From a virus (lineage: Duplodnaviria; Heunggongvirae; Uroviricota; Caudoviricetes), in the IMG/VR virus record IMGVR_UViG_2695420699_000019: a stretch of 7,967 bases of DNA. One strand, written 5' to 3'. Of this stretch, positions 3,802 through 7,967 are shown piece after piece (position 1 is the stretch's first letter; every line of letters starts with the position of its first letter). Made by a program: the position numbers and the translations under genes. The notes under the pieces were generated by a model. The model had not been told where the DNA came from and did not search any database. It worked only from the letters and a program-made list of their open reading frames with translations.

Positions 3802-3827
3802 TTTTCATAAACGTTGGTTTGGGAGAA
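3802..3827 (+). other. Din-type 26-bp recombination crossover site (site a): TTTTCATAAACG-TT-GGTTTGGGAGAA
   Basis: Two imperfectly symmetric 12-bp half-sites around a central TT; resembles hix/gix sites (hixL as I recall: TTCTTGAAAACC-AA-GGTTTTTGATAA). Lies 55 bp upstream of the invertase start, as in Mu gin/gixR. The right half-site encodes the conserved GLGE junction of the tail-fibre cassettes. Confidence 0.6.
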
Positions 3828-4040
3828 GCGGCAAAACGGAATGTGGGCAACGGGGAAAACCAAATCCCTGATATGTCTTTCTGGACGGTTACTGGTGGCA
3901 ATGGAAATTTTGTGATTCGTCAACCTGACGGGCTAATCACTCAGATGGTTACTGTAAGTATAAGTGGTCCAGTGGCGATGAATGGAATGACTGATAATGC
4001 TTATGCCATTACAGGTTCTAATAAGTCTTATATTGCCACA
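3828..4040 (+). pseudogene. Fragment of a tail-fibre variable cassette (first 71 codons only), identical to the start of the cassette at 5998-6210
   Basis: Region 3814-4040 is an exact copy of 5984-6210 (encodes [71 protein letters not shown]). It stops abruptly at 4040, where sequence from inside the invertase gene begins. Confidence 0.6.
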
Positions 4041-4367
4041 ACCCATCACATGAAAGAAAAAGCGCCCCATTGGGGTACTGGTATCAATTGAATCCGTCAG
4101 ACTACGAAAGTTGATGCCTCGTTCGCGCAACTCCTCCACCAGCACGACAAGATGCCGCATACTGCGCCCCAGTCGGTCCAGTTTCCAGACCACCAGCGTA
4201 TCGCCTGCCGATAATGTCCTGAGCAGTTTTTTCAGTCCCGGCCTTTCGGACTTTGTACCGCTTATCTTGTCTTCAAAAATCAGCTCGCATCCTGCACAGT
4301 TCAGCGCATTACGTTGTAGATCTGTGTTCTGGTCATTTGTTGACACACGTACATAGCCAATAAGCAT
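4041..4367 (-). pseudogene. Truncated second copy of the DNA invertase (N-terminal 109 codons only)
   Basis: 4042-4458 repeats 3422-3838 with 4 substitutions. It encodes MLIGYVRVSTNDQ...GRFFFHVMG, then runs into unrelated antisense tail-fibre sequence (CGNIRLIRT...). Lacks the C-terminal part of the invertase including the DNA-binding HTH. Confidence 0.85.
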
Positions 4368-4421
4368 GGTAGATCTCCCTGACAAAAGCAGGAATGATGC
4401 CATTTGCTCGTTATTTCTGCA

Positions 4422-4447
4422 TTTTCATAAACGTTGGTTTGGGAGAA
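4422..4447 (+). other. Din-type crossover site (site b), same sequence and orientation as site a
   Basis: Part of the duplicated unit, 620 bp offset from site a: TTTTCATAAACG-TT-GGTTTGGGAGAA. Confidence 0.6.
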
Positions 4448-4807
4448 GCGGCAAAACGGGATGTAGGGACAGGGGAAAATCAGATACCGGACATGGCCTC
4501 TTTTGCCAGTGGTGATGGATGGATGAAATTACCCAACGGTAAAATTCTGCAATATGGTCGAGGCGAGGCTATGCCGAAATTATCGACGCAAACAATGAGG
4601 ATTACATTTCCTATCCCTTTCCCTAAAAAAGCGGACTGCGCCATTCTTACCCATTCTGGTGATGGCGGTGCGCCTTTAGGCGCTGGGCGAGGGTTCGTGA
4701 TGACTGCAGAAGGCCCTACGTTAACCGGCTTTAATTCTGCTTACAGAACGTCATCAACCAGTGACACGGTATCTATGCATTACAGTTGGTGGGCTGTTGG
4801 TGAGTAA
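4448..4807 (+). CDS. Tail-fibre C-terminal variable cassette B (silent; no constant 5' part attached)
   Basis: In frame with the GLGE junction of site b: ...[54 protein letters not shown]...HYSWWAVGE, TAA at 4805-4807. Same N-terminal junction motif as the other cassettes but a different C-terminal (receptor-binding) sequence. The upstream ATG at 4394 has poor RBS context and lies antisense to the invertase copy. Confidence 0.65.
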   Translation, partial: AAKRDVGTGENQIPDMASFASGDGWMKLPNGKILQYGRGEAMPKLSTQTMRITFPIPFPKKADCAILTHSGDGGAPLGAGRGFVMTAEGPTLTGFNSAYRTSSTSDTVSMHYSWWAVGE

Positions 4808-4827
4808 TTTTATTCAGGGTGATTTAT

Positions 4828-5571: not shown

Positions 5572-5694
5572 GTAGATTCAATAGATCCCTGTGATTCCGC
5601 ACTGCGTATCTGGGGCGACACCGTTGTCGAGTGTGTGCTTAACAAACTCTGCCCTTCGCATACCTACGTAATTTTTAAATATCCGGAGTAATCC

Positions 5695-6438
5695 ATGCAT
5701 CGTATAGACACGAAAACCGCGCAGAAGGATAAGTTCGGCGCGGGTAAGAACGGTTTTACCCGTGGTAACCCCCAGACCGGCACACCTGCCACCGATCTGG
5801 ATGATGACTACTTTGACATGTTGCAGGAAGAACTCTGCAGCGTGGTGGAGGCATCCGGTGCCAGCCTGGAGAAGGGGCGGCATGACCAGCTGCTTACCGC
5901 GCTTCGTGCGCTGCTGTTAAGCCGCAAGAATCCGTTTGGCGATATCAAATCTGATGGCACGGTGAAAACGGCTCTCGAAAACCTTGGTTTGGGAGAAGCG
6001 GCAAAACGGAATGTGGGCAACGGGGAAAACCAAATCCCTGATATGTCTTTCTGGACGGTTACTGGTGGCAATGGAAATTTTGTGATTCGTCAACCTGACG
6101 GGCTAATCACTCAGATGGTTACTGTAAGTATAAGTGGTCCAGTGGCGATGAATGGAATGACTGATAATGCTTATGCCATTACAGGTTCTAATAAGTCTTA
6201 TATTGCCACAGCCACATTGCCCTTTGTATTTCCTAATAAGGTACTGGGCGTTATCCCTCTGGTATCAACAACAGCCTATGGTGGTGTATCCAGTAATATT
6301 ACAGGTTCATACGCGACGGCGGTTTGTTCTTTTGCCGCTGTCCGGGGGAATAATACGATTGTATTCAAAGTCGACAAACCACTGAATGCAGCCTTTCCTT
6401 CAGATACCAGCGTCTCAGCGTTAATCATTGGACGGTAA
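5695..6438 (+). CDS. Short side-tail-fibre protein (247 aa): constant N-terminal part fused through crossover site c to variable cassette C (the expressed cassette in this orientation)
   Basis: ATG at 5695 with RBS GGAG 6 nt upstream. N-terminal 97 aa ([21 protein letters not shown]...[10 protein letters not shown]), then the variable part ([19 protein letters not shown]...SALIIGR). The junction motif L-G-L-G-E resembles the constant/variable junction of lambda Stf and Mu S; size and context resemble e14 StfP (from memory). Confidence 0.8.
5972..5997 (+). other. Din-type crossover site (site c): CTCTCGAAAACC-TT-GGTTTGGGAGAA, inside the tail-fibre gene at the constant/variable junction
   Basis: Right half-site and centre identical to sites a and b; the left half-site differs and resembles the hixL left half (TTCTTGAAAACC, from memory). 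It sits where constant and variable tail-fibre parts are joined, as gixL does in Mu. Confidence 0.65.
5984..6210 (+). repeat. Exact 227-bp direct repeat, partner at 3814-4040
   Basis: Manual comparison shows identical sequence across the right half of the crossover site and the first 71 codons of cassette C. Confidence 0.85.
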
Positions 6439-6440
6439 TA

Positions 6441-6884
6441 ATGAACTCAGTATTCTTTTCACCCGGAAGTAAAAGTTTTTATCTACAAGAATTGTTTCCA
6501 GAATATGAGGATGCGGGAACGCTTCCAGATGATGTTATTGAAATTACCCGAGAAACATATGAGCAATTTCTTGGGCTGCATCCAGAAGGGAAAGAAATTG
6601 GCGCTGACAGTTCAGGACGGCCAATATGGATTAATTCCCCACCGCCTTCAAAAGAGGATGAGGTGTTGATGGCTGAAATGAAAAAAATATCTTTGGTTTC
6701 AGAAGCCAATACCTACATCAATACCCATCAGTGGCCTGGCAAAGCTGCTATTGGTCGTCTGAAAGGTAACGAGCTGGAGCAATATAATTTATGGCTGGAT
6801 TATCTGGACGCACTGGAACTGGTTGATCCCTCCAGTGCTCCAGATATTGAATGGCCTACGCCTCCGGCAGTTCAGGCCAGATGA
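6441..6884 (+). CDS. Tail-fibre assembly protein (Tfa), cassette C partner, 147 aa
   Basis: Starts 2 nt after the tail-fibre stop (TAATAATG). Ends ...[31 protein letters not shown], typical of lambda Tfa / Mu U chaperones. Confidence 0.8.
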   Translation: MNSVFFSPGSKSFYLQELFPEYEDAGTLPDDVIEITRETYEQFLGLHPEGKEIGADSSGRPIWINSPPPSKEDEVLMAEMKKISLVSEANTYINTHQWPGKAAIGRLKGNELEQYNLWLDYLDALELVDPSSAPDIEWPTPPAVQAR

Positions 6885-7458
6885 CATTCGGCGCGGTGCT
6901 GGTATCTGTTGCCGTCACCGCGTCAATGTAATCCAGCACAGCGTTAAGCTGGGTTGTTTCTGCCTGCGTCAGTTTCCGTCCGGCCTGTAATTTCAGCTGA
7001 ATCAGACTGATGGAAGCCATTGCAGCATCAATCAGTGACTGGCGCTGTGCTTCTGCCGCGTCTACTGCGGCGCTATGCTGTGCCTCAGTATCGGTTACCC
7101 ATTTCTCACCATCCCATTTATCGTATGGAGATAAAGGGGCGATAGTGGTTGTATTTTCAGGGTAATCACCCGGAGCTTTGATTTCTTTTGATTCTCCTGT
7201 TTCTGTGCTAAAGACGATTTCACCACGATGGTCTGGCACATATTCCCATGAGTTAAAATCTGCAGAACGGCAAATTGCATACCCAGTTTTGTATGAGCCA
7301 GGAGCATCTAAACAGGAACATGCCGGAATGCCGACACCCACAGCAAGATATTCAGTTGATGTGAAAATATATTCCCGTGTTTCACCATCATAGTTATAAA
7401 CCGTAATATTTCCTGCCTGGGTGGCGATAAATTCGTTATTTAATACAGCGTAATCCAT
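6856..7458 (-). CDS. Tail-fibre assembly protein (Tfa), cassette D partner, 200 aa, inverted orientation
   Basis: MDYAVLNNEFIATQAGNITVYNYDGETREYIF...WDGEKWVTDTEAQ...DTSTAPNVIWPELPEA, typical Tfa architecture. Its 3' end overlaps the 3' end of the convergent tfa at 6441-6884 by 29 bp. Same length as e14 TfaE as I recall. Confidence 0.8.
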   Translation of the reverse strand: MDYAVLNNEFIATQAGNITVYNYDGETREYIFTSTEYLAVGVGIPACSCLDAPGSYKTGYAICRSADFNSWEYVPDHRGEIVFSTETGESKEIKAPGDYPENTTTIAPLSPYDKWDGEKWVTDTEAQHSAAVDAAEAQRQSLIDAAMASISLIQLKLQAGRKLTQAETTQLNAVLDYIDAVTATDTSTAPNVIWPELPEA

Positions 7459-7967
7459 TATGCAGCCCTCACGATATACGCAAATGCCAGGTTCCGTGGT
7501 CTGGTTTCTTTAATTAAAGAGGAGGCATCAGGTGAACTCACTGATTCAGCACCATTTCTTCCACCAGTGGTATAAGTAAAAACTCTTTCACTGTTAGACC
7601 AGTAATCCACACCAACTGTTTTTGCTGATGAAAAAATGGTTTCATCAGATATAACCTGTTCTATTCCATACGGGATATTAGTAACTGACCCCACTTTTGT
7701 AGGTATTCCATGATTATGAGAAATTACTGCATGCTCTTGATTCGTTAATAAAGTACGACCGCTATCCACTCCACGCCCGTCATCCCAGCCACGAATAAAC
7801 TCACCACGTAAATCAGGCAATTTATTTGTCGGATAAGCCTTTGCCAGTTCCGGGTATTCTTCAGCAGAAAAAGCGGCACCGTTGCATTTCAGCCAGCCTG
7901 TTGGCGGAGTGGCGGAAGGCCACGGAACAGGCACGCCAACGGGTAATGCCGAACCTTCTCCCAAACC
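7458..7967 (-). CDS. Tail-fibre C-terminal variable cassette D (inverted, silent in this orientation); 5' end runs off the window
   Basis: Minus-strand translation (G)LGEGSALPVGVPVPWPSATPPTGWLKCNGAAFSAEEYPELAKAYPTNKLPDLRGEFIRGW...RPRNLAFAYIVRAA resembles the lambda Stf C-terminal region (from memory). Its stop overlaps the start of the downstream tfa (TAATG). It begins with the GLGE junction at the window edge; the M shown in the ORF track is a TTG Leu codon inside the junction. Confidence 0.8.
   Translation of the reverse strand, partial: GLGEGSALPVGVPVPWPSATPPTGWLKCNGAAFSAEEYPELAKAYPTNKLPDLRGEFIRGWDDGRGVDSGRTLLTNQEHAVISHNHGIPTKVGSVTNIPYGIEQVISDETIFSSAKTVGVDYWSNSERVFTYTTGGRNGAESVSSPDASSLIKETRPRNLAFAYIVRAA
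7956..7967 (-). other. Partial Din-type crossover site (site d, right half-site GGTTTGGGAGAA on the minus strand); the rest lies beyond the window
   Basis: Plus strand 7956-7967 is TTCTCCCAAACC, the reverse complement of the conserved half-site. It is inverted relative to sites a, b and c, so c and d form an inverted pair flanking about 2 kb (cassette C + tfa / tfa + cassette D). Confidence 0.5.

Follow-up and report, generated by a model that had tools for sequence, protein, structure and literature searches.

A four-site tail-fibre array that very probably results from the scaffolding of contigs carrying ordinary e14-type Pin/P-segment switches

The end of the draft record CYEQ01000044.1 (NCBI GCA_001283285.1), a stretch of 7,967 nt that we analysed as a whole and call the window, appears to carry four crossover sites of a Din-type tail-fibre switch, three of them in direct orientation. 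Does it describe one multi-cassette locus, as a first-pass annotation proposed, or pieces of ordinary two-site switches? In Din switches, the two 26-nt crossover sites have imperfect dyad symmetry and inverted orientation; one site lies at the border between the constant and variable parts of the fibre gene and the other beside the invertase gene, which is transcribed away from the segment, and flipping of the segment exchanges a C-terminal receptor-binding cassette together with its own tfa chaperone gene. In the Mu G/Gin and P1 C/Cin systems, a Din-family serine invertase is likewise encoded beside one site, the constant part lies outside the segment, and two alternative tail-fibre C-termini each have their own assembly gene. 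By established knowledge rather than sequence comparison, their mechanism and layout are the same as here, although they belong to other phages, concern other fibre genes (S/U, S'/U') and use sites, gix and cix, that are related but not identical. The P segment and PinE of the cryptic prophage e14 of Escherichia coli K-12 were reportedly described by Plasterk and van de Putte in 1985, and they are also treated in PMC12529663 and PMC4272514.

The motif TTGGTTTGGGAGAA occurs on the plus strand at 3814-3827, 4434-4447 and 5984-5997, three matches against 0.09 expected, and at least three were found in none of 200 shuffles. These positions agree with the placement of the sites in the first-pass annotation, with a, b and c direct and d inverted at the edge. 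All four equal the sites of the K-12 e14 P segment, and the published repeats TTGGTTTGGGAGAAGG and CCTTCTCCCAAACCAA agree with them at 15 of 16 nt (PMC12529663). The sites and the elements surrounding the last two are as follows.

3802-3827: site a, pin-proximal, TTTTCATAAACG TT GGTTTGGGAGAA; its reverse complement is the pinE-proximal site of K-12 e14
4422-4447: site b, pin-proximal, same sequence as site a
5584-5691, plus strand: last 108 nt of ymfQ, at the start of contig 3; 100% identical to ymfQ in the ssrA island of strain 602687
5695-6438, plus strand: expressed tail-fibre gene (247 aa), its constant part (5695-5983) fused to cassette C
5972-5997: site c, within the tail-fibre gene, CTCTCGAAAACC TT GGTTTGGGAGAA; equal to the stfP-internal site of K-12 e14
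6441-6884, plus strand: tfa chaperone gene of cassette C (Pfam Caudo_TAP, 3.6e-27)
6856-7458, minus strand: tfaE-like tfa chaperone gene of cassette D (Pfam Caudo_TAP, 2.4e-32)
7458-7955, minus strand: cassette D, a silent fibre tip with a tail-collar domain (ORF 7458-7964; Pfam Collar, 1e-15; PHROG tail collar fibre, 7e-69)
7956-7967, the final 12 bases of the window: site d, an inverted half-site, TTCTCCCAAACC, reverse complement of TTGGTTTGGGAGAA

Sites c and d share the same 2-nt core in opposite orientation and, core to core, delimit 1,984 nt in which cassette C and its tfa gene converge with the tfa gene and cassette D. The open reading frames and the Pfam and PHROG matches place site c at the constant/variable border, with two convergent cassette/tfa sets behind it; the product of 5695-6438 matches PHROG tail-fibre families at 1e-59, and the same gene, 744 nt long, is annotated in strains CD45 and 90-1. 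Extension to the right, advised earlier as a way to reach the centre of site d, yields the 2-nt core 'AA' in the source record, which then stops, leaving 14 of the 26 nt of the site on record; the complete equivalent is found in related complete genomes. Comparison of 602687 with CD45 at the ssrA-island switch reveals a clean 1,957-nt inversion with its breakpoints in the sites. Across complete genomes, cassette C is found in both positions: 159 have it joined to pin, 39 have it fused with the constant part. The c/d pair was thus rightly recognized as a classical invertible segment of about 2 kb, laid out like e14 P or Mu G, and the invertase, the fibre gene, the two convergent tfa genes and cassettes B and D are all present as first annotated. 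Inversion of the e14 segment has been demonstrated experimentally (PMC12529663); in the window isolate, inversion is only suggested by the coexisting joints of cassette C with pin and with the constant part.

The relationship with K-12 e14 is close. The 26-nt sites are identical, the invertase is 94% identical at the DNA level, and the order is shared: ymfQ, fibre constant part, site, cassette and tfa, convergent tfa and cassette, site, pin. Identity reaches 95% from ymfQ to the constant part and 89-90% on the tfaE/stfE side. The two systems differ in that the main switch here lies in a prophage remnant beside ssrA, whereas K-12 e14 is at icd, in cassette C, which has no relation to the stfP variable part of K-12, and in the size of the segment, which is 1,797 nt in K-12 e14. 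Complete E. coli genomes have the same switch as well: 602687 and CD45 carry it in the ssrA island, strain 90-1 in a prophage with a Mu-like tail.

The left part of the window provides the invertase and the anchor of the ssrA island.

1-483, plus strand: smpB, left anchor of the ssrA island (ORF of 160 aa; so annotated in matching complete genomes)
698-1060, plus strand: ssrA tmRNA gene (ARAGORN, tag ANDENYALAA)
3193-3747, minus strand: pin, serine DNA invertase of 184 aa from MLIGYVRVS (Pfam Resolvase, 1.5e-51, and HTH_7, 3.6e-13)
3828-4040, plus strand: 'fragment A', the beginning of cassette C, here silent and pin-proximal, at the end of contig 1
4041: scaffold join 1, 'N' in the record; similarity to the ssrA island stops at 4040 and similarity to pin begins at 4041/4042

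With its resolvase catalytic domain and C-terminal helix-turn-helix, the product of 3193-3747 has the make-up of a small serine recombinase, a class of ~185-190 aa with the active-site serine near the N-terminus; the gene is 94.2% identical in DNA to K-12 pinE and is labelled pinE in complete genomes. Because of this identity, a Fis-dependent recombinational enhancer would be expected in the 5' part of the gene. Sites a and b are the ones next to pin in the window, and the record stops at site d; in strains 90-1, 602687 and CD45, the counterpart of site d is directly followed by pinE. The prediction of an invertase just past site d is thus borne out in strain 90-1, but an additional invertase beyond the window end finds no support: most simply, the one missing there is the gene at 3193-3747.

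The continuity of the array is a different matter. Over the 14 kb of CYEQ01000044.1 that we fetched, 'N' occurs at 4041 and 5583 only. These are also the sole two mismatches between record and window, which has 'A' at both, and they coincide with the only similarity breakpoints relative to complete genomes. The order and spacing of sites a to d is therefore a statement of the scaffolding and not of the sequence, and the single four-site locus first proposed falls apart into blocks linked through one N each. None of 5,426 complete genomes spans the join at 4041 or the one at 5583, and the chimeric ORF over 4041 is recorded in a single contig only.

Block 1 (1-4040) is the ssrA island and is 99.8-99.9% identical to that of 602687 and CD45. 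It runs from smpB and ssrA through three unknown genes to pin and site a, and takes in the initial 232 nt of cassette C. Fragment A had been taken for an orphan cassette, but 3814-4040 is identical to 5984-6210. It is thus no separate relic but cassette C itself, whose initial 227-232 nt are attached at the pin-side flank; this would represent a c/d-type switch either in its opposite inversion state or in a second copy. Block 2 (4042-5582) begins with the 5' part of a pin gene and site b; cassette B follows, with a tfa gene interrupted by an IS3 element.

4042-4367, minus strand: second pin copy, 5' part; the CD45 ssrA island matches 4042-4448 at 100% in its pin-site region
4448-4807, plus strand: cassette B, a silent gp53-like tail-fibre tip (annotated ORF 4397-4807; Pfam Gp53-like_C, 1.8e-13)
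4828-5226, plus strand: tfa chaperone gene of cassette B (Pfam Caudo_TAP, 2.3e-22), its 3' end replaced by an IS3-family element
5227-5570, plus strand: left 344 nt of an IS3-family insertion sequence, 100% identical to IS3 copies of L001 and L004
5571-5582: first 12 nt of an IS30 terminal repeat, TGTAGATTCAAT, at the end of contig 2
5583: scaffold join 2, 'N' in CYEQ01000044.1 and 'A' in the window

This pin copy appears truncated only because contig 2 begins at 4042. From 4404 to 5570, cassette B and the tfa'::IS3 junction included, the block has the very sequence of an e14 locus in strain 602687 that IS3 has truncated (mcrA-pinE-B-tfa'::IS3) and that lies 1.65 Mb away from the ssrA island; RM10042 carries the same IS3::IS30 junction. 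Cassette B is, as first suggested, the orphaned half of a second switch, an e14-type copy that, unlike K-12 e14, lost half of its segment to the IS3 element. Judging from related genomes, the blocks would occupy different loci in the window strain and this second switch probably sits away from the first. Block 3 (5584-7967) is again the ssrA-island switch, with the constant part joined to cassette C. Over its first part (5584-5998), it matches the ymfQ-constant part of the ssrA island in 602687 at 100%, it is collinear with strain 90-1 at 99.5%, and its C/D segment allele is that of 90-1 with 1 mismatch. The window strain here joins known parts into a mosaic, a 602687-type ssrA-island constant part and a 90-1-type C/D segment.

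Of the five contig ends, three coincide with points of divergence between repeat copies. Contig 2 starts at 4042, one base after the C/A difference at 3421 that separates the pin copies, and ends at 5582, immediately after which the two IS30 ends diverge; the record ends in ...CCAA, the last base common to the pin-side (next C) and constant-side (next G) continuations. For the end of contig 1 at 4040, no matching allele divergence was found. One repeat makes up both the final 620 nt of contig 1 and the initial 407 nt of contig 2, and at 3667, 3724, 3727 and 3756 these contigs have their pin alleles interchanged relative to the reference loci; read pairs would then imply an overlap that could not be merged. 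In a paper on a Sanger-type assembly pipeline, joins made with SSPACE and GapFiller give N gaps and are sometimes false (PMC5320598), and these programs were presumably used for CYEQ01000044.1.

We consider it very probable that the window contains ordinary e14-type Pin/P-segment switches and that the four-site array is the product of scaffolding three short-read contigs. Pin (3193-3747) would recombine two inverted 26-nt sites, and the flip of the ~2-kb segment would exchange cassettes C and D, each with its own tfa, on the constant N-terminus. Contig 1 would be the ssrA-island switch seen from the pin side (pin joined to C), contig 3 the same switch seen from the constant side (constant part joined to C, with D at the far site), and contig 2 a pin-site-B-tfa'::IS3 remnant that related strains have at icd in prophage e14. 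As to the assembly step responsible, we infer that the repetition of pin genes, crossover sites and IS copies broke the contigs and led to joins that are false or overlapping; cassette C joined both to pin and to the constant part would similarly mean that the sequenced culture was heterogeneous for inversion, not that a second switch copy exists. By way of counterpoint, B-like cassettes occur in the ssrA island of other strains, for example NWU_3, so that a genuine pin-site-B arrangement at ssrA is conceivable.

If the block order were real, an e14-type module would have inserted between pin-site a-C' and an inverted switch copy in the ssrA island, both N would be tiny gaps, and the locus would be a degenerate array of three direct sites and one inverted. 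The scaffolder did join the contigs and hence needed some linking read pairs, a point against the scaffolding explanation; moreover, IS3, IS30 and repeated pin genes could mediate rearrangement, and some strains have up to three pin loci. We nevertheless regard a real order as very unlikely. A gap of ~1 base would be read through and closed, yet both stayed open. Join 1 abuts two copies of one 400-600-nt repeat, the pattern of an unresolved overlap, and contig ends are located at repeat-divergence points. Neither join shows microhomology or has a counterpart in the complete genomes, and neither junction is explained by one IS-mediated, homologous or site-specific event; they would join IS3 internally, and ymfQ internally in the wrong orientation.

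Alternatively, the swapped pin alleles might record an exchange of partners between the ssrA island and e14, via the pin-proximal sites or by homologous recombination in an 83-nt identical stretch. On this reading, site b and B would come after pin in the ssrA island and the C/D segment after pin in e14, the equivalent of a megabase-scale chromosomal inversion, and only the tail of contig 1 (3422-4040) would be misplaced. Indeed, the pin part of contig 2 (4042-4403) has ssrA-island alleles at 7 of 7 informative positions and continues into e14 cassette B, the 5' end of pin in contig 1 has e14 alleles at 4 positions before C, the two pin-site units are inverted relative to each other on the 602687 chromosome, and the scaffolder put contig 2 overlapping the end of contig 1. 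The same allele pattern, however, is given by mis-phasing over repeats that reads could not bridge (245 nt at 3422-3666; 83 nt at 3757-3839), contig 1 would still require two switches within pin, and ssrA-pin-B-tfa'::IS3 is in no complete genome. It is established, too, that Din invertases normally require nearby inverted sites and an enhancer on a single supercoiled domain. Such an exchange is thus very unlikely; if true, it would mean that a Din invertase or recombination in 83 nt reshuffles fibre cassettes between prophage loci ~1.6 Mb apart, with one third of the chromosome inverted.

Finally, a genuine multiple-inversion system shuffling several cassettes, like a shufflon or the Min system of plasmid p15B and the multi-cassette P2-like switches mentioned in PMC4272514, would also combine at least three sites with at least three fibre cassettes, as this one record appears to show with its three or four cassette types, but its probability is practically nil: those systems have sites in both orientations on one molecule, whereas the extra sites here come from separate contigs, with contiguity breaking off at the N of 4041 and of 5583, a, b and c are direct repeats and allow no inversion among them, the IS3 element cost B its partner site, and fragment A simply repeats cassette C.

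The interpretation as scaffolded contigs carries a caution: short-read scaffolds break or are mis-joined at invertible segments, duplicated invertase genes and IS copies, and a single N turned into a base can look like exotic architecture. The biology of the Pin switch is already known, and the window raises no new question about it, although it is currently topical, inversion of the Pin-type e14 P segment generating chimeric fibre proteins that block adsorption of phage T2 (PMC12529663). Our comparison shows that the e14-type switch is present in many E. coli, in the ssrA island and in other prophages, with differing cassette alleles and in both orientations.

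Our analyses indicate that this region very probably consists of ordinary e14-type switches and that its architecture of four crossover sites and multiple cassettes is a scaffold artefact. An exact-product look-up with the open reading frame that runs across position 4041 found a single record carrying an identical product, the 31,360-nt draft sequence CYEQ01000044.1 (GCA_001283285.1), which extends just 2 bases past window position 7967 and whose end, in reverse complement, is the window; CYEQ01 is cited among atypical enteropathogenic E. coli draft genomes (PMC7289442). Alignment of the window with this record gave two differences in total, at 4041 and 5583, where the record has N and the window has A, and no further N occurs in the 14 kb of the record that were examined. 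The window is thus made of three sequenced stretches (1-4040, 4042-5582, and 5584-7967; blocks or contigs 1, 2, and 3). The replacement of N by A, evident at both positions, conceals the scaffold joins. The first-pass annotation had read the region as one four-site, multi-cassette locus, an order that rests on these two N joins.

Content of the three blocks
1-4040: block 1, with smpB, ssrA, three genes of unknown function, pinE (minus strand), a crossover site, and a fibre cassette
1270-2994: within block 1, the three genes between ssrA and pin, 343 aa, 114 aa, and 70 aa (minus strand)
4042-5582: block 2, with part of pin, site b, cassette B (gp53-like), and a tfa gene whose 3' end is lost to the left end of an IS3-family element
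5584-7967: block 3, with the end of ymfQ, a fibre gene (constant part and cassette C), tfaC, convergent tfaD and cassette D, and half-site d

The first-pass annotation was correct in its observation of four crossover sites and, by comparison with K-12, all of them are e14 sites. Site c (CTCTCGAAAACC TT GGTTTGGGAGAA; 5972-5997) is the K-12 stfP-internal site, sites a and b (TTTTCATAAACG TT GGTTTGGGAGAA; 3802-3827 and 4422-4447) are the reverse complement of the K-12 pinE-proximal site, and site d (7956-7967) is an inverted right half; the e14 repeats have been published as TTGGTTTGGGAGAAGG and CCTTCTCCCAAACCAA (PMC12529663). Resolvase and HTH_7 domains are present in the invertase, whose gene shows 94% DNA identity to pinE, and the separate invertase expected past site d is most simply this same gene (3193-3747). 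Among the cassettes, which encode variable tail-fibre tips, B contains a Gp53-like_C domain, C matches Gp53-like_C weakly, and D contains a tail Collar domain, each being followed by a Caudo_TAP chaperone gene.

Neither join is spanned by any of 5,426 complete genomes. Seeming full-coverage matches to 3985-4100 are two separate pieces located 620 nt apart, and 5510-5630 and the first 18 nt of 5566-5660 are covered by none of these genomes. The joins show no microhomology, and a look-up of the IS3-ymfQ fusion reading frame returned no public-assembly record. Three of the five contig ends coincide with points where repeat copies diverge. Block 2 begins within pin at 4042, 1 base past the C/A difference (at 3421) that separates the two pin copies, and ends at 5582, 12 nt into the IS30 terminal repeat, where two IS30 ends diverge; strain RM10042 has this IS3::IS30 junction too, and its two IS30 ends part ways after precisely those 12 nt. 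The record itself ends in ...TTCTCCCAAACCAA, the following base being C on the pin side or G on the constant side. To account for the end of contig 1, we looked for an allele of cassette C that diverges at position 233; none was found. That the block order is real, with tiny gaps at the two N, is very improbable.

One and the same repeat forms the end of contig 1 (3422-3839) and the beginning of contig 2 (4042-4459), and the pin 5' alleles of the two copies (3667, 3724, 3727, and 3756 versus 4287, 4344, 4347, and 4376) are swapped relative to the loci of strain 602687: the ssrA-side copy carries e14 alleles and the copy preceding the cassette B of e14 carries ssrA-island alleles. This swap is compatible with the ssrA-island and e14 switches having really traded partners at their pin-proximal sites, the only reading with some novelty, but mis-phasing over two identical stretches, one of 245 nt and one of 83 nt, explains it equally well, and we regard such an exchange as very improbable. 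A true multiple-inversion system is hardly conceivable. Under the scaffold-artefact reading, because of the swapped alleles, paired reads derived from the genuine ssrA-island pin would align best with contig 2, a scaffolder would then take contig 2 to overlap the end of contig 1 and, being unable to merge them, would probably leave a minimal gap. Many assemblies of this kind were made with a pipeline of Velvet, SSPACE, and GapFiller, which yields N-joined contigs with possible false joins (PMC5320598) and may have produced those of CYEQ01000044.1.

Several other origins of the joins were rejected. A 620-nt tandem duplication (3422-4041 and 4042-4661) fits the spacing and the join, but another cassette follows its second copy, and an N stands at the join. 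Invertase action at a secondary site is rejected since neither 4040/4042 nor 5582/5584 has any likeness to the crossover consensus. The joins share no common k-mer, so that scaffolder joins are preferred over a de Bruijn k-mer chimera. For the second join, homologous recombination between loci through IS3-IS3 or pin-pin predicts products that do not match. Template switching with a 13-nt filler from 1281-1293 (peptide ATVDSID) fails as the DNA is only 18/21 identical, and the apparent filler is instead 12 nt of the IS30 end plus the N. This likeness, between 1276-1296, where the 343-aa gene starts (GCTACTGTGGATTCGATTGAT), and the IS3::IS30 junction at 5566-5586 (GCTACTGTAGATTCAATNGAT), which encode the same peptide, could be due to chance or to an IS30-end-like target sequence.

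Block 1 is 99.8-99.9% identical to the ssrA-adjoining island of 602687 and CD45. The window begins at the smpB ATG, followed by ssrA (tmRNA, 698-1060), and E. coli chromosomes match it. The three genes between ssrA and pin are conserved across many E. coli ssrA islands; scans of all three gave no Pfam or PADLOC match, and only the 343-aa protein matched a PHROG (phrog_6191, 7e-38, function unknown). A perfect GC-rich hairpin with a T run (AAAGAAGCCCGCAA/TTGCGGGCTTTTTT; 1186-1214) lies ~125 nt past the end of ssrA, close to the presumed island boundary, and resembles a terminator. Fragment A, the stretch after site a, is not left over from some other cassette but represents cassette C in the silent, pin-proximal position, 3814-4040 being identical to the cassette C start at 5984-6210.

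Within block 2, 4404-5570 is identical to prophage e14 of 602687 (mcrA-pinE-B-tfa'::IS3, adjoining icd'), 1.65 Mb away from the ssrA island, and in related strains cassette B is located in e14, not in the ssrA island. Cassette B is indeed, as first proposed, half of a second switch left orphaned, its partner half having been removed by IS3. Both 602687 and CD45 also have the tfa::IS3 junction in their e14. In 5227-5582 the IS3-family element is broken after 344 nt by the IS30 end, and other strains and plasmids carry IS30 in IS3 copies at the same position, which looks like an IS30 hot spot.

The invertible switch postulated between sites c and d is real and already known. Natural inversion of the segment is seen in the ssrA islands of 602687 and CD45, which carry it in opposite orientations: 1,957 nt are cleanly inverted, and the ends of this inversion overlap the crossover sites. 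Of the complete genomes, 159 have cassette C adjoining pin and 39 have it joined to the constant part. The assembly containing the window holds both arrangements of C, with the D end halting at the fork between pin and constant part, which possibly reflects a culture of mixed orientation or two switch copies in the strain. Both e14 orientations are mixed in K-12 cultures (PMC4272514), and CD45, with three pin loci (ssrA island, e14, and a Mu-like-tail prophage at 4.31 Mb), is our ground for the second option. As established for this family, Pin dimers would bind the two inverted 26-nt sites and, assisted by Fis bound to an enhancer within the 5' portion of pin, would exchange strands at the 2-nt core, flipping ~2 kb to join the constant fibre N-terminus (5695-5983) to C or D, with the matching tfa gene co-oriented with the expressed cassette. 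Inversion in cryptic prophages has been reported to generate chimeric fibre proteins that prevent phage T2 from adsorbing (PMC12529663).

Block 3 begins 108 nt ahead of the ymfQ end, and in strain 90-1 the whole of it is collinear with an intact Mu-like-tail prophage in which pinE directly follows site d. In the intact prophages of this type (CD45, 4.31 Mb; 90-1) the other flank of pinE is a gene for a LEM-3-like GIY-YIG nuclease. From ymfQ through the constant part, block 3 is 100% identical to the ssrA island of 602687; its invertible segment has 1 mismatch to that of 90-1 and is 4-5% diverged from that of 602687, which has a different D allele. The constant part is therefore the 602687 allele and the segment the 90-1 allele and, judging from this sequence comparison, whole invertible segments appear to be exchanged among prophages at the crossover sites.
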